Of a stretch of 64,000 bases of DNA, positions 4,700-45,360 are shown in pieces. Position 1 is the first letter of the stretch. Every line of letters begins with the position of its first letter. The position numbers and the translations under genes were made by a program. This DNA is from Cellvibrionaceae bacterium 1162T.S.0a.05 (lineage in GTDB: Bacteria; Pseudomonadota; Gammaproteobacteria; Pseudomonadales; Cellvibrionaceae): NCBI GenBank assembly GCA_000964245.1, contig LANB01000001.1:1700392-1764391 (forward strand). Direction: 5' to 3'. The notes below the pieces were generated by a model. The model made no database searches. It was not told the origin of the DNA and saw nothing but the letters and a program-made list of their open reading frames with translations.

Positions 4700-4950
4700 C
4701 GTTTAGTATTGCATTGGGATCGAGGGAGGCAAAAGAAGACGAGACTGCAAATGCAGGAAACAAGTCTGGATGGTAGCCCTCCGCTCCATCGTATTAAGTG
4801 TGATATTCACAGGCCGGTATCGGGCTTAGTACCAGAACTGCGTTCGGCACATCACCGTTGCGGGGGCAGCGTTGGAATGACAATGTTTGATCAGTTAACT
4901 CGAACTGAAGATTGGGTCACCAACTTCCCGTTTACCTTGCCCAGCATCTT
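4700..4950 (-). promoter_or_regulatory. Candidate cobalamin (AdoCbl) riboswitch in the about 470-nt btuB leader
   Basis: The 5' untranslated region upstream of btuB is long. The reverse complement contains GC-rich segments loosely resembling riboswitch core elements (cccGCaACgGTgA..., ...gcagtctcgtcttcttttgcc near the B12-box position). This was not verified by covariance model. Confidence 0.35.
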
Positions 4951-5165
4951 TGCGGCAAGCACCTGTAAACGCGGGCAATGTAGGGGATGTTTATGCTAAT
5001 GTCAACGTGGGGTCTGCTTGTGCTTTTTGGTCGAAGCGTATGATCGTGGCTTTTATTTCTGACTCAAGGCGGTGTCATTTGCTTATGAACATGGATCGTC
5101 TTATTGAAACACCACATCGGATAGCCGTTAATAACATTGCTGAATTAGAAGGGTTTTGAACGATT

Positions 5166-27149: not shown

Positions 27150-27220
27150 CAAAATCCTGTTACATGTAATAAATTTGTTTTTGTTACATGTAAAACGCTT
27201 TACATATCACATGTAATAGA
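27150..27220 (+). promoter_or_regulatory. Three phased palindromic TTACATGTAA-type operator candidates upstream of the 27226 operon
   Basis: TTACATGTAA at 27160-27169 and 27184-27193, cACATGTAAt at 27208-27217, and a TTACATAT half-site at 27200. The spacing is about 24-25 bp, and the sites lie 20-75 bp upstream of the start codon. Confidence 0.45.
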
Positions 27221-27225
27221 TTAAA

Positions 27226-27876
27226 GTGGGCCTCATGAAAGCGAAGTCTTCAGCGCATTACCAAAGAGAATATCGTCGTCGTTTGCGCGAGCAGGGCCTT
27301 GTGAAAAAGGAAGTCTGGATTCGCCCTGAAAACGCGAAGCAGCTGGCCGTATTCGAAAAAATCCTGCGTGATGTCATCGAGACACCGCTGGACCCTAACA
27401 AACTGTTGCGTAAAGGAGAGCACACAATGACAGACTTGAAATGTTGGACGACAGACTCTCTCTACGAGGCCATGAAAGATGAAGAGTTGATTCTCAGTGG
27501 GCAGGCCTCGGTAGAACTTATAGGTGGCGTGCATCCAACCTTGCATATCGTGATGCATGAGTACGGGGATTTACCCCTTTTTATGACCGTAGCCGGGGAG
27601 CAGCTTGTCGTTGAAGCCGTACTGTGGTCAACAGAGGAAGTCAGCGATCTTGCGAAATTTAATGATGCTGTGCTGCGAACACACAAGTATTTTCCGCTGT
27701 CCACCATAAGCCTGGACACTCTGGGCGACGGCAAGGATTACTACCACATGTTTGGCGCCTTGAGCTCCGCCTCGATTTTGCCGAACGTGATTTTTGAAAT
27801 TGAAACACTCGCTGCCAATGTGATTCAGGCAACGGAAGCCTACAGCGATCTGTTAAACCCCGCCAAAGAAGCTTAG
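27226..27876 (+). CDS. Hypothetical protein. An N-terminal basic, probably DNA-binding segment is fused to a YjfI/DUF2170-like domain (assignment tentative).
   Basis: The N-terminus KSSAHYQREYRRRLREQGLVKKEVWIRPE resembles RHH/phage-repressor-like basic motifs. It is followed immediately by a PspA/IM30 gene, as in E. coli yjfI-yjfJ. The ATG at 27235 is an alternative start. Confidence 0.4.
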   Translation: MGLMKAKSSAHYQREYRRRLREQGLVKKEVWIRPENAKQLAVFEKILRDVIETPLDPNKLLRKGEHTMTDLKCWTTDSLYEAMKDEELILSGQASVELIGGVHPTLHIVMHEYGDLPLFMTVAGEQLVVEAVLWSTEEVSDLAKFNDAVLRTHKYFPLSTISLDTLGDGKDYYHMFGALSSASILPNVIFEIETLAANVIQATEAYSDLLNPAKEA

Positions 27877-27892
27877 TGCTGAGGAGATAGAA

Positions 27893-28576
27893 ATGAATAT
27901 CTGGGCGAAAATGATGACCGCTTTGCGCGGAGGCATTAACGAAGCCGGCGAAGCCATCGTCGACACGCAAGCCTTGCGCATTTTGGACCAGGAAGTCCGT
28001 GAGGCTACGGATGAGCTTGAGCAATCCAGGGATGGTTTGGCGGCAATTTTGGCTCGCCAAAAACTGGCCGAAGAAAAAGCGGCAAGTTTAAAAAAACAAA
28101 TTGGTGAATACGAAGGCTATGCCACCCAGGCGCTGGAAAAAGGTGACGACGCGCTTGCGCTTGAAGTCGCGCAGAAAATTGCCGACCTGGAGAACCAATT
28201 GCAAACTGAAAATGATGCGGCTGCGGGTTTTGCTGACAGTGCGAAGGATTTACGTTCCGCTATCAAGCAGGCAGAGAGCAATATCAAACGTATCAAGCAG
28301 CAAATCGATACAGTCAAAGCCAAGGAAAGTGTGCAAAAAGCACAAACGGCGGTTGCCGAAAGGCACAGTGGTTCCAATTCAAAAATGCGCACGGCGATGG
28401 ATTCACTGGAGCGCATTAAGGAAAAGCAAGCACTTAAAGATGCGCAAATAAAAGCGGCTGCTGAAATGTCACGTGAAAAAGGTGATGACAGCCTGCAAAC
28501 AAAACTGGAAGAAGCCGGGATCGCACCGACGGGTAAAAAAGCACAAGAGGTGCTGGACCGACTGAAAAAGAAATAG
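27893..28576 (+). CDS. PspA/IM30-family protein (YjfJ-like)
   Basis: The MNIWAKMMTALRGGINEAGEAIVD N-terminus and the long coiled coil (227 aa) are typical of PspA/Vipp1/YjfJ. Confidence 0.8.
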   Translation: MNIWAKMMTALRGGINEAGEAIVDTQALRILDQEVREATDELEQSRDGLAAILARQKLAEEKAASLKKQIGEYEGYATQALEKGDDALALEVAQKIADLENQLQTENDAAAGFADSAKDLRSAIKQAESNIKRIKQQIDTVKAKESVQKAQTAVAERHSGSNSKMRTAMDSLERIKEKQALKDAQIKAAAEMSREKGDDSLQTKLEEAGIAPTGKKAQEVLDRLKKK

Positions 28577-28759
28577 CAAAACAGCTGTTACACGGACGTT
28601 GGGCCTGACTGCAAAGCAGGTACACGAAGGACCGACATGGAAGAGGCCTAATGATTAGGAAATGTATCACAGGACGTGATCCATGGATGAAGCGATTGGC
28701 TCAAGGATGAGCGCACTTAAACAACCCGCCTGATCTGGGCTGTAGAAAAGGAAAGTGAT

Positions 28760-28972
28760 ATGGATCGTTTTGAAAAAATTGCCTACAGCATTCTCTTTAT
28801 TCTCGCCGTCTTATACGGGCTCGCTTTGATTGTTGGCATGATGGCCGCTTTCCCTTTCGGTCTGCTTGGTCTGGCTGCAATGGTGGCTTTTGGCTTGCTC
28901 TTTATCAAAGTGCTGTGTGAGCGCATGAATAGCAAGGAAGACGATTATTACGATAAGCACGTGGAGAAATAG
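28760..28972 (+). CDS. Small two-TM membrane protein
   Basis: 70 aa with two hydrophobic helices. It is stop/start adjacent to the ybjQ-like gene (28972/28974). Confidence 0.4.
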   Translation: MDRFEKIAYSILFILAVLYGLALIVGMMAAFPFGLLGLAAMVAFGLLFIKVLCERMNSKEDDYYDKHVEK

Positions 28973-28973
28973 C

Positions 28974-29288
28974 ATGATTATCACCACCCAGGATCGCATT
29001 GAAGAAAAAGAAATCGTTGAAACGCTCGGTCTTGTTCGGGGAAATACAATTCGGGCAAGGCACATTGGTAAGGATATTCTCGCGGGGCTGCGCACTATCG
29101 TCGGTGGTGAAATCAGTGAATACACCAAAATGCTGGCGGAAGCGCGTGAACAGGCCATTGACCGCATGACGGAAGAAGCAAGGAAGTTAGGTGCTGACGC
29201 GATTGTATGTTTACGTTTTACGACGTCGCCGGTTCTACAAGGCGCGGCGGAACTTCTAGCCTATGGAACAGCTGTAAAATTAAATTAA
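28974..29288 (+). CDS. YbjQ/UPF0145 (DUF74) family protein
   Basis: 104 aa; the EIVETLGLVRGNTIRARHIGKDILAGLRTIVGGEI core is typical of YbjQ. Confidence 0.75.
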   Translation: MIITTQDRIEEKEIVETLGLVRGNTIRARHIGKDILAGLRTIVGGEISEYTKMLAEAREQAIDRMTEEARKLGADAIVCLRFTTSPVLQGAAELLAYGTAVKLN

Positions 29289-29341
29289 GTTTGCTGGCTT
29301 AAGCTTCCATAGCTAAGTAATGACAGATACAGGAGCATCCC

Positions 29342-30283
29342 ATGTTTAATCTCATTCTAATTTTTATATTATTTGTATTGTCAGTGCTTAGCGTGACGAA
29401 AATAGCGAGCGCTGTACAGGAAAAAGAAGCCGCACCCGTGTTTAGATACGGAGGCTATTTAGGTCTGGCAGCAGCGACAGTGTGGTTGGCATTCAGCTGT
29501 GTGATGACCGTGCCTGCAGGCCACGTCAAAGTGGCTACGCTCTTTGGTAAAGTACTTGATAATACCTATAAAGAAGGGTTTCATGTCGTCAATCCGCTAC
29601 TCGACTTTACGGTATTTGACCTCCGCCAAAAAACGCATAAAGAAACGGCAGGCATTCCTGCTGAGGATAAGTTGATTACCCGTATGGATGTGTCTGTGCA
29701 ATATCGAACTATCGGTAGCATGGCACCAGACATACTGAGAAACACCGGTACGACAGAATCACTTATCCAGGTTCATATGATTCCCAAGTTGCGTTCAATC
29801 TTGAGAGAGCAGGGTAAAGGAGTGCCGATGTCACAGGATTTTTTCAAGGAGTCGATTCAAAGACAGCTACAAGAGAGTTTACAAGTTGGCTTGGCGGATT
29901 TTCTTGCGGATAAAGGTATTCAGGTTGAGACTGTGCTTATTCGTGAAGTGCAACTGCCAGAAGTGATTCGCACGGCGATTACCGAAACCAAAAAACGTGA
30001 ACAGGAAGTATTAAAGCAGCAAGCAGAATTGGAGCGTTTCGCGACAGAGCAAGATCAGAAAGTGAAACAAGCCGAATCAGAGTTAAAAGCTGCGAAGCTT
30101 GAAGCTCAGAAAATCAAGGAGTTAGCTGATGCTGAAGCCTACAAAATCAAGGTGATTAACGAAACCCTGGCGAAATCACCTAACTACATTGAATTAAAGC
30201 GTGTTGAGCAATGGAATGGCGTTCTGCCAGTATACGCAGGCGGAGAAAACATCCCGATGATTGACTTAAGAAAACCACGCTAA
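29342..30283 (+). CDS. SPFH/band-7 (prohibitin-like) membrane protein
   Basis: N-terminal TM helix, then the SPFH core (VPAGHVKVATLFGKV...FHVVNPLLDFTVFDLRQ) and a C-terminal coiled coil. Confidence 0.8.
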   Translation: MFNLILIFILFVLSVLSVTKIASAVQEKEAAPVFRYGGYLGLAAATVWLAFSCVMTVPAGHVKVATLFGKVLDNTYKEGFHVVNPLLDFTVFDLRQKTHKETAGIPAEDKLITRMDVSVQYRTIGSMAPDILRNTGTTESLIQVHMIPKLRSILREQGKGVPMSQDFFKESIQRQLQESLQVGLADFLADKGIQVETVLIREVQLPEVIRTAITETKKREQEVLKQQAELERFATEQDQKVKQAESELKAAKLEAQKIKELADAEAYKIKVINETLAKSPNYIELKRVEQWNGVLPVYAGGENIPMIDLRKPR

Positions 30284-30336
30284 CAATTACAGGAGCAGCC
30301 GCGCAGCGGTTGCTCTAAAGACCAAAAGGGAAATTT

Positions 30337-31023
30337 ATGTTTGCAATTCTCGTCACTGACAAAATGGATGTGTTCTACGGAAACATTACCAGCTTCCCCA
30401 CGGTCGTTTTCACCGTTTTACTTTTGTTTTGTTTTCTCTATTGGTTGGTTGCCGTCATTGGTTTGATCGACTTTGATTTTCTTGATTTCGATTTGCCGTC
30501 CGATGATATTGACCTGGGTGGAAACGATAGCCTCGAAAACGTGAATGTGCTGGCGGGCTTGCTGTTAAGGTTGGGCTTAAACGGTGTTCCCTTTCCCATT
30601 GTTTTTTCTATCATAACCATTATTGGCTGGCTAATCTGCTACTACGCGGTGTACTTTATTTTTCCGCTTGTGCCGGGCAGTGTACTCGAGTTTCTGGTCG
30701 GTATACCCATTCTTATAGCAACGTTTTATTTCAGTGCGTTAATTACCGGGAAAATCATTAAGCCACTCAAGTCTATATTTCGAGCTGCCAATCAGGAAGT
30801 TCAGAAAACCATCCTGGGAAAAGTTGCCATTGTTCGTACAGCAAGAGTGGATGCAGATTTTGGTGAAGCGGTTGTGGAAGATGGGGGTGCAGGTCTCATA
30901 GTGAAGGTAAGGCCGTACAAAAAACAAACCTTTACGCGCGGCGACCGTGTTGTATTACTGGAACACGTACGGGAAGAAAATATTTATAAAGTGATATCAG
31001 AACAAGAATTTAGCGATTCTTAA
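30337..31023 (+). CDS. NfeD/YqiJ-like membrane protein with a C-terminal OB-fold (flotillin partner)
   Basis: Multi-TM N-terminal half with an acidic DFDFLDFDLPSDDIDLGG loop. The C-terminal GKVAIVRTARVDADFGEAVVEDGGAGLIVKVRP is an NfeD-type OB fold. It sits immediately upstream of flotillin, as yqiJ does with yqiK. Confidence 0.6.
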   Translation: MFAILVTDKMDVFYGNITSFPTVVFTVLLLFCFLYWLVAVIGLIDFDFLDFDLPSDDIDLGGNDSLENVNVLAGLLLRLGLNGVPFPIVFSIITIIGWLICYYAVYFIFPLVPGSVLEFLVGIPILIATFYFSALITGKIIKPLKSIFRAANQEVQKTILGKVAIVRTARVDADFGEAVVEDGGAGLIVKVRPYKKQTFTRGDRVVLLEHVREENIYKVISEQEFSDS

Positions 31024-31036
31024 AAGGAGAAAAGAA

Positions 31037-32965
31037 ATGTCAGAATATATTGGCGCATTGGGAGGCATAATGGTGGCGGTTTTTGCCATCTTTATATTTC
31101 TCGTGGTTGTGGCTGCGCTGTTTAAATCTTTCTATGTAAAGGTTGAGCAGGGCACCGCGTTAATTAAAAACGACCTTAGCACTCGTCCAAAAGTGTTTTT
31201 TACTGGTGCCTGGATTATTCCTGTCATCCATAAAAAGGAATTAATGCGTATCTCCTTGATTACCATGGAGGTCGATCGGCGAGGTAAAGATGGCTTGATC
31301 TGTAAGGACAATATGCGGGCGGATATCACGGTTGCGTTTTACCTGCGAGTCAATGAAACACCTGAAGATGTACTCAAAGTCGCCAAGTCACTCGGCTCCA
31401 GTCGCGCATCAAATAAAGATGCCGTAAATGAACTCTTCAATGCCAAATTTTCTGAGGCGTTGAAAACAGTGGGTAAGCGCTTTGACTTTGTGAACCTTTT
31501 TGAAAATCGTCAGGAGTTTCGCGACGCGATCATCGAAGTTATCGGCAACGACTTGAACGGTTACGTACTGGAAGACGTTGCAATTGATTATCTGGAGCAA
31601 ACGCCAAAAGTCTCACTGGACCCAAGCAATATTCTTGATGCAGAGGGTATTCGCAAGATCACTGAACTGACAGCGACTCAAAATGTACAAACCAATAATT
31701 ATGAGCGTGACGAAGAGCTCGCAATTAAGAAGAAAAACGTAGAAACCGTTGAAGCGATGCTGGAACTCGAACGCCAGCAGGCAGATGCGGAAGCCAAACA
31801 GCAACGTGAAATTGCCACCATTCAAGCGCGAGAAGAAGCGGAAACCATTAAAGTTCAGGAAGAAGAACGCAAAAAATCCTCTTCAGCAACCATCCAGGTT
31901 GACCAGGATCTCGCCGTACAAAAAGAAAATCAACAGCGTGAAATCGAAGTGGCCGAACAAAATCGCCAACGTGCAGTGGTTATTGAGGTCGAAAAAGTCA
32001 CGCGCGCACGAGATCTTGAAATTGTCGCCCGTGAACGCGAGGTCGAACTGCAACGTATTGATGCAGAAAAAGCAGTTGAAGTTGAGAAGAAAGAAATTGC
32101 CAATGTCATTCGGGAACGTGTTGCGGTTGATAAAACGGTTGCGATTGAAGAAGAGCGTATCAAGGAAGTGCGTGAAGTGTCTGAAGCAGATCGCCTGAAG
32201 CAAACCCAGGTATTGGCAGCAGAAGCTAAAGCGGAAGAAGAGAAAGTTAAACGTGTGAAAGAAGCGGAAGCTGAAGAGATTGCAGCGAAGCATAAAGCGG
32301 TTGAGGTCACCACTATCGCGCAGGCCGATCTCGAAGCGGCTGCGAAAGAAGCCGATGCCAAGAAGAAACTTGCAGAAGGTGTACAGGCTGAACGTGCAGC
32401 GCCGGGGCTTGCGGATGCCAAAGTGCAGGAAGCTAAAGCGGATGCGCTAGAGAAAGAAGGCCTTGCTGAAGCGAAAGTGATTGCATCAAAAGGTCAGAGC
32501 GAAGCGGAAGTGATTGCTGCGAAAGGCGATGCCGAGGCGCGTGCTACGAAAGAAACAGGTCTTGCGGGTGCTGAAGTTATTCGTCAGAAGTTCAAAGCGG
32601 AAGCGGACGGCCTTGTAGATAAATTCGAAGCGATGGGCACTATGAGTGATCAGGCGCGTAATCACGAAGAATTCCGTATGGCGCTGGAAACAGCTCTCAA
32701 GGAAGCGCTGGCCTCGATTGAAGCGGGTAAGGAAATCGCGAAGGAAAATGCCGAAGTGCTGGCCACAGCGCTGCAAAAAGCGAAGATCGATATTGTCGGT
32801 GGAGAAGATCACTTCTTCGATAACTTTGCGAAATCGCTTTCCATTGGTAAAGCGGTCGACGGGTTGGCCAACAAGAGCAGCACGATTTCGACTTTGTTGG
32901 AAAAAGTGATGGCCTTCTCTGCGGGTGCGCAGGCTACGAAAAGCTCCGATTTGGAAACCCAATAA
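31037..32965 (+). CDS. Flotillin-family protein (YqiK-like)
   Basis: N-terminal TM and SPFH domain (VEQGTALIKNDLSTRPKVFFTGAWIIPVIHK...), then a very long E/A/K-rich coiled-coil tail. 642 aa. Confidence 0.85.
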   Translation: MSEYIGALGGIMVAVFAIFIFLVVVAALFKSFYVKVEQGTALIKNDLSTRPKVFFTGAWIIPVIHKKELMRISLITMEVDRRGKDGLICKDNMRADITVAFYLRVNETPEDVLKVAKSLGSSRASNKDAVNELFNAKFSEALKTVGKRFDFVNLFENRQEFRDAIIEVIGNDLNGYVLEDVAIDYLEQTPKVSLDPSNILDAEGIRKITELTATQNVQTNNYERDEELAIKKKNVETVEAMLELERQQADAEAKQQREIATIQAREEAETIKVQEEERKKSSSATIQVDQDLAVQKENQQREIEVAEQNRQRAVVIEVEKVTRARDLEIVAREREVELQRIDAEKAVEVEKKEIANVIRERVAVDKTVAIEEERIKEVREVSEADRLKQTQVLAAEAKAEEEKVKRVKEAEAEEIAAKHKAVEVTTIAQADLEAAAKEADAKKKLAEGVQAERAAPGLADAKVQEAKADALEKEGLAEAKVIASKGQSEAEVIAAKGDAEARATKETGLAGAEVIRQKFKAEADGLVDKFEAMGTMSDQARNHEEFRMALETALKEALASIEAGKEIAKENAEVLATALQKAKIDIVGGEDHFFDNFAKSLSIGKAVDGLANKSSTISTLLEKVMAFSAGAQATKSSDLETQ

Positions 32966-32996
32966 AAATTAACTCAAAACCTCGTAAGGAATTAGC

Positions 32997-33488
32997 ATGA
33001 AAACTCTAGTGAAAATTAGCCTTTTACTCATTCTGTCAGTGCCGGTATTTGCTGCAGATAACGAAAAGGCCGCACGCGCCGAACTGGATAAAATGTTCGA
33101 ACTAACGAATATGACTGCAATGGTCGATCAAATGTACGCCCAAATTGGGAATATGTGGCAACAAATGGCGGCGCAGCAAAATATTCCTGCTGACAAAGCG
33201 GGTGTCACTAAAAAATATTTTGAGAGACTCGAAGCCATAATGCGTGAAGACATGAGCTGGGAAAAAATGAAAGAACCAATGATGCAGGTCTACATTCGCG
33301 CTTTCAGTCTTGAAGAAATAAAAGCCATGAATGAATTCTACGAAACACCGGCAGGTTCTGCGATGTTGAAAAAAATGCCCCAGGTCATGCAGGAAAGCAT
33401 GATGGTGGGTCAACAACTTGCACAAGCAATGATGCCTAAAATCCAGGCTTTATCGCAGGAAATGTCTGCCGAACTGCAAGCGAAATAA
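32997..33488 (+). CDS. Periplasmic DUF2059-like protein
   Basis: Signal peptide and Met/Gln-rich helices (FYETPAGSAMLKKMPQVMQESMM). Confidence 0.55.
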   Translation: MKTLVKISLLLILSVPVFAADNEKAARAELDKMFELTNMTAMVDQMYAQIGNMWQQMAAQQNIPADKAGVTKKYFERLEAIMREDMSWEKMKEPMMQVYIRAFSLEEIKAMNEFYETPAGSAMLKKMPQVMQESMMVGQQLAQAMMPKIQALSQEMSAELQAK

Positions 33489-33512
33489 AGTCAACAGAAA
33501 AAGGAAGCTCAG

Positions 33513-36500
33513 GTGTCAATAGAACGGGAAAGCGCACAAGTCGATCAAGCCGTTGCTGAAGGTGGCGCATACGAGGTTCTGCGCAAGCGCTTGCTTGAGC
33601 AGGGTACAGCGCTGGAGACTGCGATCAAAGCGCTCAATACAGCACGGCTGGATGAATTTGGTTCGTCAGATATGGAAGTCTGCGCGCGGGTTCGTATCCG
33701 CACGGAGAACAATTGTGTAGCGCGTGACATTGTCCAGGTTGGCCCTTTGCTTCTTTTTGGTTACAACGTTTTTATCGGTTTAAAAAAAGAAACACGCGTA
33801 GAGGATGTTTTTTCTGTTTTTTCACTAAAGGGTGAGGGAAAGGACCTGACGCTTGAAGAGGTCAAAGCAGAAAACTGCTTCCTGGCAAACAAGGCCTTCC
33901 GCAAAGACTTTAAAGAACTTTATCATTATTACAGCCAAACCAAATTGCTGGAGCTCACTGTCAAGGACGGCAAATTATTGATGGGCTTTCAAATCGGCGA
34001 GCGCCTGGAAGACCAGCGTGTTTTCCGTTGGGCATTTTCTCCAGACGGCACACAACTGGAATACATTGATAATCGCGGTGAGCGTGATATCGCGTTGCCA
34101 CCTTCCTATGATTTTGAATGGTTGAAACTCGGCCGTGACGATACCGTACATGGCAAACACGCGCATGTGAATGTGCTCGACAAGGTTTTTGTTGAAACAA
34201 CACGCGGCGATCTTACCATCAAAATTGAAAACAATACTGAAAGTGGATTGGGTATTTACAGCGAAGCGGTCGAAGAACCAAACCAATCCATAGACGACGC
34301 TGAATATTATTACGCTGCACTGGGGGATTTGATTCTTTTAAAAATCTTACCCTACAAAGAAGATCACTTCCGTTATTTTATTTTTAATACCCTAACGAAT
34401 GATATCCGCCGGCTTGATGCCATTGGCGGTTCTTGTGTGCAGCTCCCGGAAGATCACGGCGTGGTTTTTCCAGGTGGTTATTACTTGCAAAGTGGTGAAT
34501 ACAAAACCTTCGATAGCAATAGCGAAAACCTTCGTTTCAAACGGGTATTGAAATCGCCCAACGGCGAAGATGTACTTTACGTTTTCTACGAGCCTGAAAA
34601 GGGTATTTGCGGCCTGTTTGCTTACAACATGATCAATAAGAGCTTGCAAAACCCGATTTACGGGCATGGCTACGCGCTCAGAAACGACGGCAAGCTCATC
34701 ATATTTTCAGCCGAAAAAGAGGCGACACGTGTTCACCCCATGCAAATTTGGGAAACACCCTATTTCAGTGACGAGTACGCGAGCACCCAGCCCGCGAGTC
34801 AAAGTTACTATGGCCGTATTGGTAACGCTGCTCTGGTCCGAGGCATATCTGACGTTCTGTCTGTTGTCCGCATGATTAAAAACCAGAGTGTTAGCTCGCG
34901 GCTTTACGAAGAAATGGCCAGAGCCTCGCTCAAGGTGTTTGATGATCACTATTGGTTAGCGGAAGATGAATGTGCGGAAATTCAGGCACAGCTCAAAGAC
35001 ATTGCTTCGAGCGCCAATCTTGCAATTGATGAATTTGAGAAAGTCAAAAGCATTCAAAAACAAAGTGCACAGGCACTAAGAGAAGCGGATAGCAAACAGA
35101 AGGCGCTGGTATCGCGCATTCGCACAGCGAGTTGGGAAAATGCAGAAGACTATGTGAAAGCGCTCGATGAATGTCGCCACCAGCGTGGTCGTCTGGCAAC
35201 AATTAAAGATTACCGTTATATCGATCTCGAAAAAATCGGCGCGCTGGATGAAGAAATTGCTGAAGTCCAGGAGCAGCTTGGTGTTAAAACGATAGAATTT
35301 CTGAGCGCTGGCGATGCGCTAGCGCCCTACCTGGAAAAAATCAGTGGCATCGACAGTGAGGTGCAAGAAGCAGAAACGATTGCAACGCTAACCCCCTTGG
35401 TTGAGCAGATCGAAAACATTGCCTCTGGTCTGGACTTGCTGTCGGAATTACTTGCGAGCTTACAAGTTGGTGATACCACAGTACGCACCCGCATCGTCGA
35501 CAGCATCTCTGAAGTGTATGCGAAGCTGAACCAGAGTAAGGCGCAAGCACAACACAAGCAAAAAAATCTTGGCTCCGAAGAGGCCATCGCACAATTTGCC
35601 GCGCAATTTAAGTTGTTCTCACAAAGCATTACCAATGCCTTGGGTTTGGCAACAAGCCCGGAAGCTTGCGACGAGCAAATGTCGCGCTTGCTCATTCAGC
35701 TGGAAGAACTTGAAAGCCAATTCAGTGAATACGAACAATTCCTCGCAGATATTATGGAAAAGCGCGAGGAAATTTACGAAACCTTTGAAAGTCACAAGCA
35801 AAAATTGTTAGACGATTGTCAGCGGCGCGCGCAAGGCATTGCTGATGCGGCAGACAGGGTTCTGAGCAGTATTCAGCGGCGCAGCCAAAAATTTACCGAC
35901 CAGGATGAGCTCAATACCTATTTTGCTTCTGATGCTCTGGTGCTCAAGGTACGTGAATTCGTTGCGCAATTGCACAAACTGGATGCCAGTGTAAGCGCTG
36001 AAGACATCGATGCCCGTTTTAAAGCCCTGAAAGAACAAAGCATCCGAATTTTGCGTGATAAAAGTGATATTTACGAAGAGGGCGGTGCGGTTATCAAGTT
36101 GGGGCCGCGTCATAAATTTTCGGTGAATACCCAGGAGCTGGATCTCACCATCATACCCCGCAAAGATGCACTCTTTATTCATTTATCGGGAACAGATTAC
36201 TACCAGCGCATTGAGCATGAAGAGCTCAACGCGTTAAAACCCTGGTGGCATGTCAATCTGGAATCAGAAAGCGACGAGGTGTATCGCGCAGAATATCTGG
36301 CTGCCAGTATTTTGTGGGCAGCCCAATCCCGGCGCGATGATCTGGATATGGAGACCTTGCGTCTTGCCAGCTCAGACGACAAAGCGTTGAATAAACTTTG
36401 CCGAAATTTTGCCGCGCCACGCTACAAGGAAGGCTATGAAAAAGGCATACACGACCACGATGCTGCGCGGATTCTTTCTGCTCTTATTCCTGCAATGGAA

Positions 36501-38831
36501 AGTGCAGACTTGCTGCGTTTTGATCCGCAATGCCGGGGTTTTGCTCAGGTATTTTGGGCAAACATTGAAAGAATTTCGGCAGAACTAAAGAACAAACGCC
36601 TCACGTTTGAGACCTGGGTTGAGCGCGCGCAATCAGCACATCAGATGCAAGCTCAGCTACAAAGCCGCGACGCCGCTGAATTGCTCGCAGAAGAAGTGTT
36701 TGCAGCAATGCAGGAGTTTATCGCCTATCACCCCTTTGACCTCAGCGAACTGGAGTTAAAACGTGCTGCTGATTATCTTGTGGCTGAGTTGGGCGAGGAC
36801 CGACCGCAATTTGTTGGCTCAAAATATGCGAGAACACTGGCAGATGAATTAAAACGCTCATTGAATGATGAAAGCTGGCGGCAATTTCAAACCGCACTGA
36901 AGAAAATGCAGGGTTGGCCAGCAGAACGTTGGAAGCTCAGTTGTGCCTGGTTGAAAGCGATGGTCAAGGAGCGGAACCTGGAATCCTTGATGCGCTATGT
37001 CCCCGAAGCGGCAGCACTGATCAATGCAGACGAACGGATCGAACGACGCCCCTCGGAAGTGGATTTGGAATTAAATGTTGAAAAGCTCCTTGGGGATCAC
37101 AAACGTATCCAGAACCAATGTTTGCAACTAGGCGTCGATGAATTCCTTTTGCGTATGCACAAACATCGCAATGAATTTATTCCATCCTACCAGCGCTTTC
37201 ATCACTTGCGTCAGCGCATTGCCGATGAACAAAAGGCCCGCTTGCGCTTGCAGGAATTCAAAGCCAGGCCCTTGAGCTCGTTCGTACGCAACAAACTGAT
37301 TAACGAAGCCTACCTGCCTATTATTGGCGACAACCTGGCAAAACAAATGGGAACGGTCGGCGACAGTAAGCGCACGGATTTGATGGGCTTATTAATGATG
37401 ATCTCGCCTCCCGGCTACGGTAAAACCACATTAATGGAATATGTGGCGAGCCGCCTGGGATTGATATTCATGAAAATAAATTGCCCGGCCCTTGGACATG
37501 ATGTGCTATCACTGGACCCACAACAAGCGCCAAACGCAACGGCGGCTCAGGAGTTGAACAAACTCAATCTGGGTCTTGAAATGGGCAACAATGTCATGCT
37601 GTATCTGGATGATATTCAACATACTCATCCGGAATTTCTGCAAAAATTTATTTCTCTTTGCGATGGTACGCGCCGTATAGAAGGGGTATGGGACGGTCAA
37701 ACAAAAACCTACGATATGCGTGGCAAAAAATTCTGCGTTGTTATGGCCGGTAACCCCTACACCGAGTCTGGGGAAGTGTTCAAAATTCCGGACATGTTGG
37801 CTAACCGCGCCGACATTTATAATCTTGGTGATATTCTGGGCGGCATGGATGAGGCGTTCGCACTCAGTTATGTGGAGAACAGCCTAACATCAAACTCCGT
37901 GCTCGCGCCTCTCGCGACTCGGGATTTGAAAGACGTGTACCTTTTTGCGCGCATGGCACAAGGTGAAGATGTCGCGACCACAGATCTGAGCCATCAGTAT
38001 TCAGCGGCAGAAATCGGTGAAATTGTCGATGTCCTGAAAAAACTTTTCATGATTCGCGATGTCGTGTTGAAAATTAATCAACAATACATCGCCTCCGCAG
38101 CACAAGCGGACAAGTATCGCGTAGAGCCGCCCTTTAAACTGCAAGGTAGCTATCGCAACATGAATAAAATGGCAGAAAAGGTTTCTGCCATCATGAATGA
38201 AAAAGAACTTCAACAACTTATTGAAGATCATTACCTCGGTGAAGCACAGTTATTAACAACAGGTGCCGAAGAAAACCTGTTGAAACTGATGGAATTGCGC
38301 GGCGTTCTTCAAGGTGAAAAAGCGCAACGTTGGCAAGCCATTAAGAAAGATTTCTTGCGCGTTAAATCTCTTGGTGGAGACGACGCAGATACCGGAACCA
38401 AAATCATAACGCAGCTCGGCGTGTTGGGTGAAAGCTTGAATAGCATTGCTGTGGCTACCCAGCGAGCGGGCAAGGATTTTGGTAAGGCGGTGAGTAAAAC
38501 AGACAAAAGTCGTGATCATGCTGCTATGGATTCAAGAGTGGCGGACGCATTACTCGCCTTAAAATCCGTAATCGAGAAAATTGAATCAACAACAAAAAAT
38601 ACGCCACCTCCCAAGGTTGAAGTTATCAATCAACCCGTACCTGGCGTTGATAAAATATTGAGAGTGTTGGCAAAAACTATCGAAGGAACAATCTTTCCAC
38701 TGGTTCGCAGTATGGATAAGAAGCTGGAAATCGACCTGCGAACCCATGAAAAAATGTCTGAAGTTTCGAACCAACTCAGAGAACTGGAAAAGGAAGTTCG
38801 TACAGGTAGTTTTGAAAAAGGTCAGTCCTGA
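33513..38831 (+). CDS. Giant (1772 aa) protein with an N-terminal beta-rich domain, a long coiled coil and a C-terminal MoxR/AAA_5-like ATPase domain
   Basis: GTG start with an AGGAAG RBS. Walker A MMISPPGYGKTTLM, Walker B MLYLDDIQH and the MoxR-like sensor block VVMAGNPYTESGEVFKIPDMLANRADIYNLGD are present. About 600 aa of heptad-rich helix precede the ATPase. Confidence 0.8.
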   Translation: MSIERESAQVDQAVAEGGAYEVLRKRLLEQGTALETAIKALNTARLDEFGSSDMEVCARVRIRTENNCVARDIVQVGPLLLFGYNVFIGLKKETRVEDVFSVFSLKGEGKDLTLEEVKAENCFLANKAFRKDFKELYHYYSQTKLLELTVKDGKLLMGFQIGERLEDQRVFRWAFSPDGTQLEYIDNRGERDIALPPSYDFEWLKLGRDDTVHGKHAHVNVLDKVFVETTRGDLTIKIENNTESGLGIYSEAVEEPNQSIDDAEYYYAALGDLILLKILPYKEDHFRYFIFNTLTNDIRRLDAIGGSCVQLPEDHGVVFPGGYYLQSGEYKTFDSNSENLRFKRVLKSPNGEDVLYVFYEPEKGICGLFAYNMINKSLQNPIYGHGYALRNDGKLIIFSAEKEATRVHPMQIWETPYFSDEYASTQPASQSYYGRIGNAALVRGISDVLSVVRMIKNQSVSSRLYEEMARASLKVFDDHYWLAEDECAEIQAQLKDIASSANLAIDEFEKVKSIQKQSAQALREADSKQKALVSRIRTASWENAEDYVKALDECRHQRGRLATIKDYRYIDLEKIGALDEEIAEVQEQLGVKTIEFLSAGDALAPYLEKISGIDSEVQEAETIATLTPLVEQIENIASGLDLLSELLASLQVGDTTVRTRIVDSISEVYAKLNQSKAQAQHKQKNLGSEEAIAQFAAQFKLFSQSITNALGLATSPEACDEQMSRLLIQLEELESQFSEYEQFLADIMEKREEIYETFESHKQKLLDDCQRRAQGIADAADRVLSSIQRRSQKFTDQDELNTYFASDALVLKVREFVAQLHKLDASVSAEDIDARFKALKEQSIRILRDKSDIYEEGGAVIKLGPRHKFSVNTQELDLTIIPRKDALFIHLSGTDYYQRIEHEELNALKPWWHVNLESESDEVYRAEYLAASILWAAQSRRDDLDMETLRLASSDDKALNKLCRNFAAPRYKEGYEKGIHDHDAARILSALIPAMESADLLRFDPQCRGFAQVFWANIERISAELKNKRLTFETWVERAQSAHQMQAQLQSRDAAELLAEEVFAAMQEFIAYHPFDLSELELKRAADYLVAELGEDRPQFVGSKYARTLADELKRSLNDESWRQFQTALKKMQGWPAERWKLSCAWLKAMVKERNLESLMRYVPEAAALINADERIERRPSEVDLELNVEKLLGDHKRIQNQCLQLGVDEFLLRMHKHRNEFIPSYQRFHHLRQRIADEQKARLRLQEFKARPLSSFVRNKLINEAYLPIIGDNLAKQMGTVGDSKRTDLMGLLMMISPPGYGKTTLMEYVASRLGLIFMKINCPALGHDVLSLDPQQAPNATAAQELNKLNLGLEMGNNVMLYLDDIQHTHPEFLQKFISLCDGTRRIEGVWDGQTKTYDMRGKKFCVVMAGNPYTESGEVFKIPDMLANRADIYNLGDILGGMDEAFALSYVENSLTSNSVLAPLATRDLKDVYLFARMAQGEDVATTDLSHQYSAAEIGEIVDVLKKLFMIRDVVLKINQQYIASAAQADKYRVEPPFKLQGSYRNMNKMAEKVSAIMNEKELQQLIEDHYLGEAQLLTTGAEENLLKLMELRGVLQGEKAQRWQAIKKDFLRVKSLGGDDADTGTKIITQLGVLGESLNSIAVATQRAGKDFGKAVSKTDKSRDHAAMDSRVADALLALKSVIEKIESTTKNTPPPKVEVINQPVPGVDKILRVLAKTIEGTIFPLVRSMDKKLEIDLRTHEKMSEVSNQLRELEKEVRTGSFEKGQS

Positions 38832-38834
38832 TCT

Positions 38835-39392
38835 ATGGCCAGCGAGAGTATAGTTGCGCGCGTAAAATTGCTGTTCAGCTTATGCATGTTTCTGATTCTG
38901 GTTCATGCAGCGAATGTGTTTCTACAAGGCTATTTACTGCAATTCGGCATTTTACCGCGGGAACCCACTAGCCTGCCTTTTATATTCACCACCGTATTTA
39001 TTCATGGGTCCTGGGCGCATTTATTTAACAACCTCTTCGGCCTTGTAATTTTTGGTTCGCTTTGTCTTTTGCGCGGTCGCCGATATTTCATTAACGCCAG
39101 CCTCTTTATTATTGTAGTCGGTGGGCTACTGGTATGGGCGTTTGGTCGGCCAGCAATACACATCGGTGCGAGTGGATGGATATTTGGCTTGTGGAGTTTA
39201 AGTATTGCTCTTGCCTGGTACCAAAAAAGCTTTATCAACTTCGCTATAGCGGTGCTTGTTCTATTTTTTTATGGCGGGATGATATACGGCGTACTGCCAG
39301 CGGATAAAGCGATTTCATTTGAAGCGCACCTGGCGGGCGCCTTCGCAGGCATTCTATGTGCTGCAAATAGCAGAACACGAAAAATACGGTAA
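38835..39392 (+). CDS. Rhomboid-family intramembrane serine protease
   Basis: GASGWIFGL (GxSG) and AHLAGAFAGIL (catalytic His helix) with 6 TM helices. The start lies 4 nt after the giant ORF stop. Confidence 0.8.
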   Translation: MASESIVARVKLLFSLCMFLILVHAANVFLQGYLLQFGILPREPTSLPFIFTTVFIHGSWAHLFNNLFGLVIFGSLCLLRGRRYFINASLFIIVVGGLLVWAFGRPAIHIGASGWIFGLWSLSIALAWYQKSFINFAIAVLVLFFYGGMIYGVLPADKAISFEAHLAGAFAGILCAANSRTRKIR

Positions 39393-39452: not shown

Positions 39453-39704
39453 ATGAAAAGGAAATTTTCAGTAAAAGTCAATCATTATGCAGCAAAAGCA
39501 ATAGATGTAAATTTTAATAGTAATGAAGAGACAATCGCAATCAACCTTGTTTTATTGATGATTGTTGGTGGAGTCGCATGGTATGGAATCGAACATAAAA
39601 TATGGGGATTGTTCTGGTTTTTTATCGTTGCCGGTACCCTTATAGGGATATCCCTGTTAATCGATTTATACTTGCTTATTAAGAAAAAGATATGTCCAGA
39701 TTAA
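39453..39704 (+). CDS. Small two-TM membrane protein
   Basis: RBS AAAGGAGAAAAAATG. 83 aa. It overlaps the start of the PLD-like gene. Confidence 0.4.
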   Translation: MKRKFSVKVNHYAAKAIDVNFNSNEETIAINLVLLMIVGGVAWYGIEHKIWGLFWFFIVAGTLIGISLLIDLYLLIKKKICPD

Positions 39705-40387
39705 AAGAGCTTGAACAAAAACTTCTAATCACATTCGAAGATCTGCGTTTATCCAAGCTGGAAAAATATGAGTTGCAGAAGCTTGTGACTGAATGCTCGG
39801 AAGAGGAGCGTCGTTTTCTCAAGAATCGGGCTTTTGCTATTTTCAGGGAGCATTTAAATCATTTTGAAGATGCTGCTGATGCTTATTCGTGGCTTGAGCG
39901 TTGCGTAAAGGCACTAGCGCTTCCGCAAAATCATTTGGCGAAACCACGGGTCTATTTTTCGCCAGGTGAAACGTGCCGGCAGGCCATCGTACATGAAATA
40001 AAAAACGCCCGAGAGAAAATACAGATTTGCGTGTTTACCATTTCAGACAACGTAATAAGTGAAGCACTATTGCAAGCTTTTGAAAAGGGTATAGACCTAA
40101 AAATTATTACCGACAATGAAAAAAAGGAAGATCGGGGATCCGATATTAATGCGCTAAAAAACGCGGGCATCGCAGTAAGAGAAGATGCGAGCCCGGATCA
40201 TATGCATCACAAATTTGCGATTTTTGATAACGACGTACTTATAAATGGCAGTTTCAATTGGACGCGAAGTGCAAGCCTTCGAAACCACGAGAATATCGTG
40301 GTCCACCGCCAACCGCAGCTTGTTGCTGAATTTCAAAGAGAGTTTGCTAGACTGTGGACTCAATTTTCCAAAGAGGGGAGACGATAA
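39692..40387 (+). CDS. Phospholipase-D-superfamily (single HKD, Nuc-like) protein with an N-terminal helical extension
   Basis: HKD motif HHKFAIFDNDVLINGSFNWTRSA. About 140-aa PLD core after a 90-aa coiled-coil N-terminus. Confidence 0.7.
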   Translation: MSRLKELEQKLLITFEDLRLSKLEKYELQKLVTECSEEERRFLKNRAFAIFREHLNHFEDAADAYSWLERCVKALALPQNHLAKPRVYFSPGETCRQAIVHEIKNAREKIQICVFTISDNVISEALLQAFEKGIDLKIITDNEKKEDRGSDINALKNAGIAVREDASPDHMHHKFAIFDNDVLINGSFNWTRSASLRNHENIVVHRQPQLVAEFQREFARLWTQFSKEGRR

Positions 40388-40917
40388 TGCATTGCCCGGT
40401 ATGTAAAGAACCCGATCTGGAGCCCAGAGAACTTGAACGTGGACTGGTAGGCGCAGTGTGTCAATCTTGCGAAGGCGCACTTTTATCATTGATACAGTAC
40501 CGCTATTGGGTCGATCATCATGATGACAAGGAACTTAAACCTTTGGAGGAGGGGCCAATCAAGGAAAGTGAAAATGCCTTGCTGTGCCCAAAGTGCCAAA
40601 AAATGATGACTAAATATCGCTTGGGGGCTGGAACTCGCCACCGTATAGATCTTTGCGGTCATTGCGATGAGGCCTGGCTTGACAAGGGGGAATGGCAATT
40701 GCTCAAACAATTGGATTTACACAATCAATTGCCTTCTGTTTTTACCGAGGCTTGGCAGCGCAATATTCGTAAACAAAAAGAACGTCAAAGCCTGGAAAAA
40801 CACTATGAACAAGAAATTGGAGAAGAAGATTTTTTAAAAGTAAAAACATTTAAAGAGTGGCTCGACAAGCATCCGAAACTGGGGCAGATAAAACACTATA
40901 TCAATATCAAGTTTTAA
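40387..40917 (+). CDS. Zinc-ribbon protein with four CxxC pairs
   Basis: CPVCKE...CQSCEG and CPKCQK...CGHCDE. The start ATG overlaps the PLD stop (TAATG). Confidence 0.6.
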   Translation: MHCPVCKEPDLEPRELERGLVGAVCQSCEGALLSLIQYRYWVDHHDDKELKPLEEGPIKESENALLCPKCQKMMTKYRLGAGTRHRIDLCGHCDEAWLDKGEWQLLKQLDLHNQLPSVFTEAWQRNIRKQKERQSLEKHYEQEIGEEDFLKVKTFKEWLDKHPKLGQIKHYINIKF

Positions 40918-40929
40918 GGGGAGTGATTA

Positions 40930-41165
40930 TGACTGAAGCAAGAGACTATCTGGAGTTAACCTTTCGTTCGATCAATTGCTTTGCCGACGATGGCAAGCTC
41001 GATGTTCAGGAGTTGGATAGTTTAATCAGCATCGCGCTACGCGATGGTGTTGTTGATGATAACGAAAAGCGTGTTTTGCAAGCGATTATCGGTCGATTGA
41101 ACCAACAAGAGCTGACTGAGGAAATGCAGGCTAGAATCAAACAAATCCAGAACACTTATTTCTGA
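40930..41165 (+). CDS. TerB-like (tellurite-resistance TerB fold) small protein
   Basis: [38 protein letters not shown] is a TerB/DjlA-N type acidic helix pair. 78 aa. Confidence 0.5.
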
Positions 41166-41272
41166 TCCCGGTGTTCATTTTGAGAGGGTTTGCGATTGTG
41201 AATGCCGTCACGCAACTTTCTCCTTTCATTTTGCGTATAGATTCAGGACTTTCCAACAAAAGGATGTACGCA

Positions 41273-41470
41273 ATGTTAGTGTTAACTCGAAAAATCGGCG
41301 AAACCGTCATGATCGGCGATGATACTGCTGTAACCGTGTTGGGCATGCGCGGTGGCCATGTCCGTATCGGAATCGCCGCACCAAAGGAACTGCCCGTTCA
41401 TCGTGAAGAAGTGTATATAAAAATCAAGCGTGGGATGGGTGTACCCGGCTATACCTTCGAGAATTGCTGA
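41273..41470 (+). CDS. csrA: Carbon storage regulator CsrA
   Basis: [48 protein letters not shown] is near-identical in pattern to E. coli CsrA. 65 aa. Confidence 0.9.
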
Positions 41471-45283: not shown

Positions 45284-45360
45284 GCACCCGTAGCTCAGCT
45301 GGATAGAGTAGGTGGCTTCGAACCACTTGGTCGGGAGTTCGAATCTCTCCGGGTGCGCCA
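45284..45360 (+). tRNA. tRNA-Arg (anticodon reads TCG)
   Basis: Manual cloverleaf: 7-bp acceptor stem GCACCCG/CGGGTGC, D-arm GCTC/GAGT, anticodon stem GGTGG/CCACT with loop CTTCGAA, T-arm GGGAG-TTCGAAT-CTCTC, 3' CCA. It is near-identical in architecture to E. coli tRNA-Arg(ACG). Confidence 0.85.

Follow-up and report, generated by a model that had tools for sequence, protein, structure and literature searches.

Gene content and conservation of the locus

The stretch of DNA analysed here (the window) comprises 64,000 nucleotides (nt) of contig LANB01000001.1 from Cellvibrionaceae bacterium 1162T.S.0a.05. Between positions 27226 and 39392 it carries ten open reading frames (ORFs), all on the plus strand and separated by gaps of 16, 183, 1, 53, 53, 13, 31, 24 and 3 nt, while hemH lies 5' of the cluster on the opposite strand. 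The original prediction, made by a model from the sequence alone, had read these genes as a membrane-remodelling machine of ten to eleven parts in an undescribed arrangement. Its account of the layout as co-directional and tightly spaced (gaps 1-183 nt) was verified, as were all its family assignments, eight of them through Pfam, NCBIfam and, for a 70-residue protein, hydrophobicity, and those of a YqiJ-like protein and a flotillin through profile comparison with hhalign. The arrangement, however, is a known one: the locus is orthologous to the bacABCDEF operon of Pseudomonas aeruginosa (PA3732-PA3727), and constitutes a marine relative of that operon with extra inserted genes.

The first gene, bacA (27235-27876), encodes a basic N-terminal domain of about 45 residues, putatively DNA-binding, followed by a DUF2170/CesT-like domain (Pfam DUF2170, E-value 2e-49; 316 bits against the NCBIfam BacA "biofilm formation regulator" equivalog, whose cut-off is 300). 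Its start is likely to be the ATG at 27235 and not the GTG at 27226. After a 16-nt gap follows bacB (27893-28576), the product of which belongs to PspA_IM30 of the ESCRT-III superfamily (Pfam E-value 6e-45). Further downstream, bacC (30337-31023) encodes a 228-residue YqiJ/YuaF (NfeD-like) protein with multiple transmembrane (TM) segments and a C-terminal β-rich soluble domain, and the adjacent bacD, 13 nt away (31037-32965), encodes a 642-residue YqiK-type flotillin with an N-terminal TM segment, an SPFH domain and a long coiled coil. Neither of these two proteins gave a Pfam, NCBIfam or PDB sequence match, but the family of the former aligned with Escherichia coli YqiJ with an hhalign probability of 92% (E-value 6e-7), and that of the latter with E. 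coli YqiK with 99.8% (E-value 3e-29, 32% identity over 394 columns spanning the SPFH domain). Homologues of the 642-residue protein are labelled 'flotillin family protein' by NCBI. An AlphaFold2 model of this protein, computed from a shallow alignment of sequences 77-93% identical, reached a predicted local distance difference test score (pLDDT) of 54, with values below 50 over the SPFH domain, and was not used. Finally, bacE (33513-38831) encodes a giant ATPase of 1772 residues.

In P. aeruginosa, PA3729-PA3732 were named the biofilm-associated cluster (bac) by Macé et al. 2008, who found the PspA-like PA3731 to be osmotically induced and the mutants to be defective in biofilm formation, swarming, rhamnolipid production and virulence (PMC2587700). 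Wallart 2024 described a six-gene operon, bacA-F, in strain PA14, with transcripts detected by reverse-transcription PCR (RT-PCR) across each junction; BacB-F were over-produced 6-13-fold in a bacA mutant, and the solved structure of BacA was CesT-like (PMC10948618). The order in Pseudomonas paraeruginosa (locus L027 of our survey) is BacA, PspA, YqiJ-like protein, flotillin, giant protein and a phospholipase D (PLD) superfamily protein, from which BacE corresponds to the giant ATPase and BacF to the PLD protein. BacA (DUF2170), BacB (PspA), BacC (YqiJ-like), BacD (flotillin), BacE (DUF3686 AAA+) and BacF (PLD) thus occur in the window in the same order. The same neighbourhood was also described by Ravi et al. 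2024 as CesT/Tir and PspA together with YqiJ/YuaF, a band-7/flotillin protein and a novel AAA+ ATPase, with or without a PLD protein, and these authors reported an abbreviated form, operons with only flotillin, YqiJ and AAA+ genes, from bacteria as well as archaea (PMC11237479). The gene combination of the window corresponds exactly to theirs, down to the optional HKD/PLD protein; their main text says nothing on the rhomboid, on the N-terminal domain of BacA and its operator, or on the ATPase being MoxR-like (PMC11237479), points which are treated below.

Parts of the locus also occur as gene pairs in E. coli, where yqiJK is the same NfeD-like and flotillin pair and yjfIJ the same DUF2170 and PspA pair. 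The yqiJK region of E. coli K-12 does not contain a gene for the giant ATPase. We take the two pairs to lie at separate loci in E. coli, and YjfI to be devoid of the N-terminal domain.

The conservation of the locus was surveyed by scanning one genome per species with the giant protein as anchor, which yielded at least 586 relatives, of which 80 loci were kept with 10-kb flanks. These came from Cellvibrionaceae, Pseudomonas, Xanthomonadales, Xenorhabdus, Gilliamella, Burkholderiales, Zetaproteobacteria and Longimicrobium. All their ORFs were searched with the window proteins, 68 loci having enough upstream flank to be counted on that side and 73 being counted downstream. The genes for the YqiJ-like protein and the flotillin lie directly 5' of the giant gene in all 68 loci, preceded by those for BacA and PspA in 44-45 of them. 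The Pfam-labelled neighbourhoods of Teredinibacter, Bacterioplanes and Hahella agree with this core order. An actinobacterium shows a 212-residue protein, a Band_7 protein and the giant gene, and a Flavobacterium has CesT_Tir, PspA, a 221-residue protein, a 686-residue protein and the giant gene, while the abbreviated flotillin-YqiJ-AAA+ form was seen in Xanthomonadales, Actinobacteria and Firmicutes. The conserved core therefore consists of the YqiJ-like protein, the flotillin and the giant ATPase, usually accompanied by BacA and PspA. As this order is kept while the flanking genes vary between genomes, chance juxtaposition is refuted, and the prediction of a conserved linked set, as opposed to housekeeping genes brought together by chance, holds for this core.

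It does not hold for the remaining genes between bacB and bacE, and the picture of a machine of ten or eleven parts was overstated. Three genes are added between the pspA and yqiJ-like genes with respect to the bac operon, and one between the flotillin and giant genes. The first encodes a 70-residue protein of the two-TM type with a long hydrophobic stretch (28760-28972) and forms a lineage-specific pair with the second, which encodes YbjQ (28974-29288; Pfam YbjQ_1). The third encodes a 313-residue SPFH membrane protein (29342-30283; Band_7, E-value 3e-18), and a profile comparison between it and the flotillin family gave no useful signal. The fourth encodes a DUF2059 protein (32997-33488; Pfam DUF2059) with a signal-peptide-like N-terminus, suggesting that it is secreted. 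None of these four genes, nor an 83-codon gene further downstream, was found in any of the 80 sampled loci. In the closest relative available (L085), which has a flotillin 93% identical to that of the window and the same hemH neighbour, the genes for the two-TM protein and YbjQ are present and those for the SPFH and DUF2059 proteins are absent. At the DNA level the window and this relative are collinear at 69-79% identity and differ by two clean indels only (window positions 29285-30335 and 32945-33539). Being missing from both this relative and the sampled loci, the SPFH and DUF2059 genes are best regarded as recent insertions and not as parts of a conserved machine. In other genomes, the slots in which they are inserted hold other small genes, weakly TerB-like or unassigned.

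The giant gene is followed after 3 nt by a rhomboid gene (38835-39392), the product of which is a minimal intramembrane serine protease of 185 residues (Pfam E-value 1e-20; 74.6 bits, cut-off 22.6) with intact catalytic motifs (H57/N66, GAS113G and H165, with Ser113 and His165 as the catalytic pair). A rhomboid gene lies directly 3' of the giant gene in 19 of the 73 loci, namely in 17 of 44 with BacA-PspA and 2 of 22 without. The rhomboid, which had been counted among the parts of the machine, is thus a recurrent accessory but not a constant member.

Nor does the locus end there, as had been proposed: the same-strand run continues beyond 39392 with four more genes. An 83-residue, lineage-specific two-TM protein (39453-39704) is encoded by an ORF with a G+C content (GC) of 0.325, compared with about 0.43-0.50 in its neighbours, which has a 13-nt overlap with the start of the next gene; the ORF may be spurious, or else a gene gained recently. 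The BacF-type PLD gene (39692-40387) encodes a single-HKD member of the phospholipase D superfamily (PLDc_2, E-value 5e-32) with an intact motif, H172-x-K-x4-D179, and occurs 3' of the giant gene in 24 of the 73 loci, including that of P. paraeruginosa (21 of 44 with BacA-PspA and 3 of 22 without). Its stop codon overlaps the start (TAATG) of a gene for a double zinc-ribbon protein (40387-40917; Zn_ribbon_TFIIB, E-value 9e-9), which is found downstream of the giant gene on the same strand in 9 of the 73 loci and also in Teredinibacter, Bacterioplanes and Hahella. The last gene encodes a 78-residue protein (40929-41165) with weak similarity to TerB (E-value 0.004, under the curated cut-off); such small genes lie 3' of the giant gene in 5 of the 73 loci and 5' of it in 8 of the 68, so that their position varies. 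Compared with the bac operon, the window therefore adds the rhomboid and 83-residue TM proteins before the PLD protein and the zinc-ribbon and weakly TerB-like proteins after it. Because the PLD, zinc-ribbon and 78-residue proteins recur in the same neighbourhood elsewhere, the conserved cluster extends to about 41165. In Teredinibacter sp. KSP-S5-2 (L001, 17604-21915), a Peptidase_M90/SEC-C gene occupies the position held by the PLD gene in the window, and a phage-type integrase and an IS110 transposase lie just 3' of the bac-like cluster.

Immediately 3' of the cluster in the window lies a CsrA-family gene (41171-41470), the true start of which is probably at about 41273. Its position is suggestive, because in pathogenic E. 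coli CsrA is bound by chaperones of the CesT type. As a member of the system csrA was nevertheless rejected, since it follows the cluster in none of the 73 loci; among the sampled loci, the linkage of csrA and of an M28 peptidase gene 3' of the cluster was not seen elsewhere.

The giant DUF3686 ATPase

The 1772-residue product of bacE comprises DUF3686 (residues 34-480; Pfam E-value 4e-198), DUF7902 (601-684), a long helical region, a MoxR-like AAA+ module and a helical C-terminal tail. The AAA+ motifs comprise GYGKT at 1301 as Walker A, LYLDD at 1363 as Walker B and N1414 as sensor 1. PDB sequence searches with the protein and with its family profile gave nothing significant. A model of the C-terminal 592 residues (1181-1772), built from a 69-sequence alignment, was confident (pLDDT 88.9; predicted template modelling score 0.72). 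It displays a β-hairpin at about residues 1388-1401, between the Walker B strand and sensor 1, as expected for this branch of AAA+ proteins, and two MoxR families ranked top, with smaller margins, when it was searched with Foldseek. Judged from this model, the AAA+ module is MoxR/midasin-like and closest to the protein-remodelling MoxR/midasin ATPases, which supports the predicted MoxR type for the motor module. We did not find this class assignment in the literature searched. For the N-terminal part, Ravi et al. 2024 described β-propeller repeats followed by a coiled coil (PMC11237479).

Despite its MoxR-like motor, the giant protein is not a typical MoxR system, as its chain is 1772 residues long (compared with about 250-500) and a Pfam scan found no VWA domain among the cluster genes. 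It differs from MoxR remodellers such as CbbQ, NorQ and RavA, and from midasin, in having a single AAA+ module in such a long chain, no VWA/MIDAS partner, and an N-terminal DUF3686/DUF7902 region that is specific to the giant family. Neither is it Vps4-like or a Vps4 homologue: the combination of a classical-clade AAA module with an N-terminal MIT domain that defines the Vps4 type is not present in it.

The family is large and well conserved. A word-indexed search returned at least 4968 homologues, the best 120 of which shared 63-100% full-length identity with the query, and an exhaustive search grouped the family into 1373 clusters at 50% identity. The closest database homologues among the matches listed share 76-79% identity. 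Across orders the genome scan gave 49-66% identity over about 1750 residues, and the P. paraeruginosa gene at the same position encodes a protein 55% identical over the full length. Members with the same architecture occur in Bacteroidota, Firmicutes and Actinobacteria.

BacA, its predicted operator and promoter

The N-terminal domain of BacA is conserved in all 47 long (>550-nt) orthologues that were aligned, including that of P. paraeruginosa, with the consensus KSSAHYQREYRRRLREQGLVKKEVWILPEN..L...EK.LR. It shows weak matches to the UrfF plasmid repressor (E-value 1e-4) and to MazE-like antitoxins (E-value 0.14). Upstream of bacA, on the same strand, lie three palindromic boxes, two with the sequence TTACATGTAA (27160-27169 and 27184-27193) and one with the sequence TCACATGTAA (27207-27216), which we predict to be operators of the bac promoter. 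The exact copies of TTACATGTAA found here are the only ones in the 64-kb window.

Similar boxes accompany bacA in many orders. Two or more ACATGT cores occur within 110 nt of the conserved bacA ATG in 42 of 48 loci, compared with a background frequency of 0.14 per kb; the proximal core lies 24-28 nt from the ATG in 40 of the 48, and the spacing between boxes is mostly 21-24 nt. At the P. paraeruginosa locus the paired boxes stand upstream at the same distance as in the window. No boxes were found upstream of the yqiJ-like gene in the 22 loci without BacA, and they are also missing at the two loci where BacA is devoid of its N-terminal domain. In Xanthomonadales, a variant N-terminal domain is paired with variant boxes, TTTCATGTAA-N12-TTACATGAAA. 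This co-variation of the BacA N-terminal domain with paired TTACATGTAA boxes was not found in the literature searched. Two loci, one from a Hahella and one from a Cellvibrionaceae (L039 and L051), show an inverted BacA-PspA pair that is divergent from the yqiJ-flotillin-giant genes; their BacA proteins are short (153 and 135 residues), with the N-terminal domain missing, and no ACATGT boxes are present.

A consensus scan pointed to a putative σ70-like promoter on the plus strand (27199-27227), composed of a -35 element TTTACA (27199-27204), a 17-nt spacer that contains the proximal box, and a -10 element TAAAGT (27222-27227). A -35-like motif (TTGAN/TTTAC) is present between the boxes in 33 of 40 loci and is followed by a -10-like TAnanT motif ending about 7 nt before the ATG, whereas the σ54 consensus TGGCA-N5-TTGC was found in none of the 48 regions upstream of bacA. 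Given that the -10 element ends 7 nt 5' of the ATG, the bacA transcript probably has no leader or hardly any. The locus is also distinct from the classical Psp system (PspF-PspABC), as PspF and PspB/PspC domains were not found in the genes scanned between 27226 and 43317 and there was no σ54 promoter match.

From these sequence patterns we infer that BacA would act as a DNA-binding autorepressor on a σ70-type, nearly leaderless promoter, which is consistent with the derepression seen in the P. aeruginosa bacA mutant. This view differs from the published proposals of a σ54 promoter and of control through protein-protein contacts. The BacA work of Wallart 2024 used a 139-residue construct without the N-terminal domain (PMC10948618). 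If BacA is an autorepressor, the crystallised 139-residue protein would lack the domain concerned, which suggests that the published work on P. aeruginosa BacA may concern an N-terminally truncated form. The predicted operator and promoter would form a regulatory switch that is cheap to test.

Possible function of the module and alternative explanations

We propose that the locus is a stress-inducible inner-membrane maintenance module built from an ancient three-gene core (YqiJ-like protein, flotillin and DUF3686 ATPase) and the BacA/BacB pair, a reading to which we assign a probability of roughly 0.6. It builds on the orthology, synteny, and domain and fold assignments presented above, as well as on the operon structure, BacA-dependent repression and stress induction established in Pseudomonas. 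In such a module, BacA, as a dimer of its CesT-like domain with a small basic N-terminal domain, would occupy two or three TTACATGTAA boxes, located on either side of the -35 element and within the spacer, thereby repressing the operon. Membrane damage would free BacA, probably via client binding to the chaperone-like domain, and lead to derepression. The PspA-like BacB would then polymerise on the damaged bilayer, while the YqiJ-like BacC and the flotillin BacD would form an SPFH scaffold or microdomain. The giant protein would assemble into a ring through its C-terminal MoxR/midasin-like AAA+ module, its helical arms and N-terminal DUF3686 domains gripping the flotillin lattice, the PspA lattice or both, and ATP hydrolysis would remodel or disassemble the lattice. 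Optional enzymes, here the rhomboid protease with its intact motifs and the HKD/PLD protein, may act on proteins and lipids confined to the domain.

The role in stress or repair that had been predicted from the sequence agrees with published results on the P. aeruginosa orthologues. It fits the induction of the orthologues by osmotic shock (PMC2587700) and by phage, PA3728-PA3732 being up-regulated in all phage-infected P. aeruginosa samples (PMC12041424), and the induction of PA3731 by membrane-active staphylococcal peptides (bioRxiv 2023.01.29.526047). It fits less well with the phenotypes of P. aeruginosa in rhamnolipid production, swarming and biofilm formation, which are not obviously those of membrane repair.

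These phenotypes are one of several points that weigh against the proposed maintenance module. The physical interactions it invokes, what the ATPase and the rhomboid act on, and the binding of BacA to DNA are all inferred. MoxR ATPases normally act together with a VWA partner, and there is none in the locus, and the Walker B motif of the giant protein ends in DD where DE is usual. The β-propeller in DUF3686 is taken from Ravi et al., as the model computed here spans residues 1181-1772. BacA-PspA is missing from one third of the loci, which means that the ATPase cannot rely on a neighbouring PspA. On the regulatory side, the assignment of DNA binding to the N-terminal domain of BacA draws on sub-threshold matches (UrfF, 1e-4; MazE-like, 0.14), and the authors of the P. 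aeruginosa study proposed a σ54 promoter and protein-protein control (PMC10948618).

Flotillins and PspA/ESCRT-III-like proteins are widely studied, but their energy-consuming partner is not established, and according to a 2025 review an ATPase of the Vps4 type "appears absent in bacteria" (PMC7619361). An ATPase of 1600-1900 residues lies beside the flotillin and YqiJ genes in every sampled genome, from Gammaproteobacteria to Actinobacteria and Bacteroidota. With this constant neighbourhood and no solved relative detectable by sequence, the giant protein is the obvious candidate for such a partner; it may plausibly be what drives the dynamics of flotillin and PspA in bacteria, and is a tractable target for cryo-EM and genetics.

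Eukaryotic cells possess assemblies that bring together SPFH proteins, rhomboids and AAA+ proteins, such as the mitochondrial SLP2-PARL-YME1L 'SPY' complex and erlin/RHBDL4-derlin/p97 in the endoplasmic reticulum. Genes for an SPFH scaffold, a rhomboid and an AAA+ motor likewise lie together at the locus, a likeness that is by analogy only: homology does not go beyond the superfamily level, the AAA+ module of the locus is from another clade and carries no protease domain, and a rhomboid is present in only about one quarter of the sampled loci. A more ambitious and, in our view, doubtful version of the maintenance proposal makes the giant protein the missing ATP motor of flotillin and PspA scaffolds, a hexameric MoxR/midasin-like ring on long arms that would pull SPFH cages or PspA polymers apart and, with a translationally coupled rhomboid, would extract trapped membrane proteins and clip them. 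It would then be a prokaryotic counterpart of SLP2-PARL-YME1L and of erlin-rhomboid-p97, switched by BacA as a repressor with a chaperone fold that reads the client load.

Other explanations fare worse. The loss of rhamnolipid secretion, swarming, biofilm formation and virulence seen with bacA and bacB mutants of P. aeruginosa (PMC2587700, PMC10948618) might point to a biofilm, surfactant or vesicle-export device, in which the scaffold and ATPase drive the secretion of rhamnolipid-like amphiphiles or vesicles and do not repair membranes. We consider this unlikely, as the core extends to Actinobacteria, Bacteroidota and Firmicutes as well as to many marine Gammaproteobacteria, which have no surfactant pathway in common, the clusters of the sampled loci share neither a transporter gene nor a biosynthetic one, and the Pseudomonas phenotypes can be secondary to envelope stress.

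Somewhat less probable still is an anti-phage defence or abortive-infection island, with the large ATPase as the supposed sensor of infection and either the PLD-type nuclease or the rhomboid as its effector. The up-regulation of PA3728-PA3732 in all phage-infected P. aeruginosa samples (PMC12041424) would agree with it, as would the clear but generic matches of the PLD gene to DrmC, Mko and DpdK models and the variability of the downstream accessory genes and genomic contexts. However, phage induction is also classic for Psp envelope-stress systems, and PADLOC gave no match for BacA, YbjQ, the SPFH protein, the YqiJ-like protein, the flotillin, the giant protein or the rhomboid, with marginal values of about 1e-4 for PspA and DUF2059. 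The giant protein is moreover far more conserved than typical defence genes (49-66% across orders) and is invariably tied to the flotillin and YqiJ.

That the ten genes are a loose juxtaposition of several independent small operons sharing an orientation is very improbable. The 183-nt gap after pspA and the four of ten genes that are not conserved elsewhere would allow it, but the core order is kept in every sampled genome, the genes overlap at PLD/zinc-ribbon and lie 3 nt apart at giant/rhomboid, and RT-PCR transcripts in PA14 span each bacA-F junction (PMC10948618). Folding of the gap itself is not better than that of shuffled sequence (z = -1.0); no convincing terminator was found inside the cluster or in the gap, nor a convincing structured RNA in the latter, and an Rfam search found no RNA family within the locus. 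The least credible alternative is that the giant protein is a DNA-repair ATPase with unrelated neighbours, an idea that comes from database names alone ('DNA repair ATPase' and 'ATPase involved in DNA repair'; NCBI, Pfam) and for which we found no support, since a full-text literature search for DUF3686 returned no paper, domain and profile searches detected no nuclease or DNA-binding domain in the protein, the linkage to flotillin and YqiJ holds in 68 of 68 loci, and the AAA+ module is nearest to protein-remodelling MoxR/midasin ATPases. We retain the inner-membrane maintenance module as our preferred reading, the locus adding a new example of a described system and not a new system.

Elsewhere in the window, an Rfam search identified a cobalamin riboswitch on the minus strand (4795-4981; RF00174, 62 bits), which presumably controls a minus-strand ORF of 627 codons (2806-4689). 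A tRNA gene is located at 45284-45357 (RF00005, 64 bits) and is followed by a stretch of lower GC (0.38-0.42) at about 46-51 kb, which could be an integrated element.

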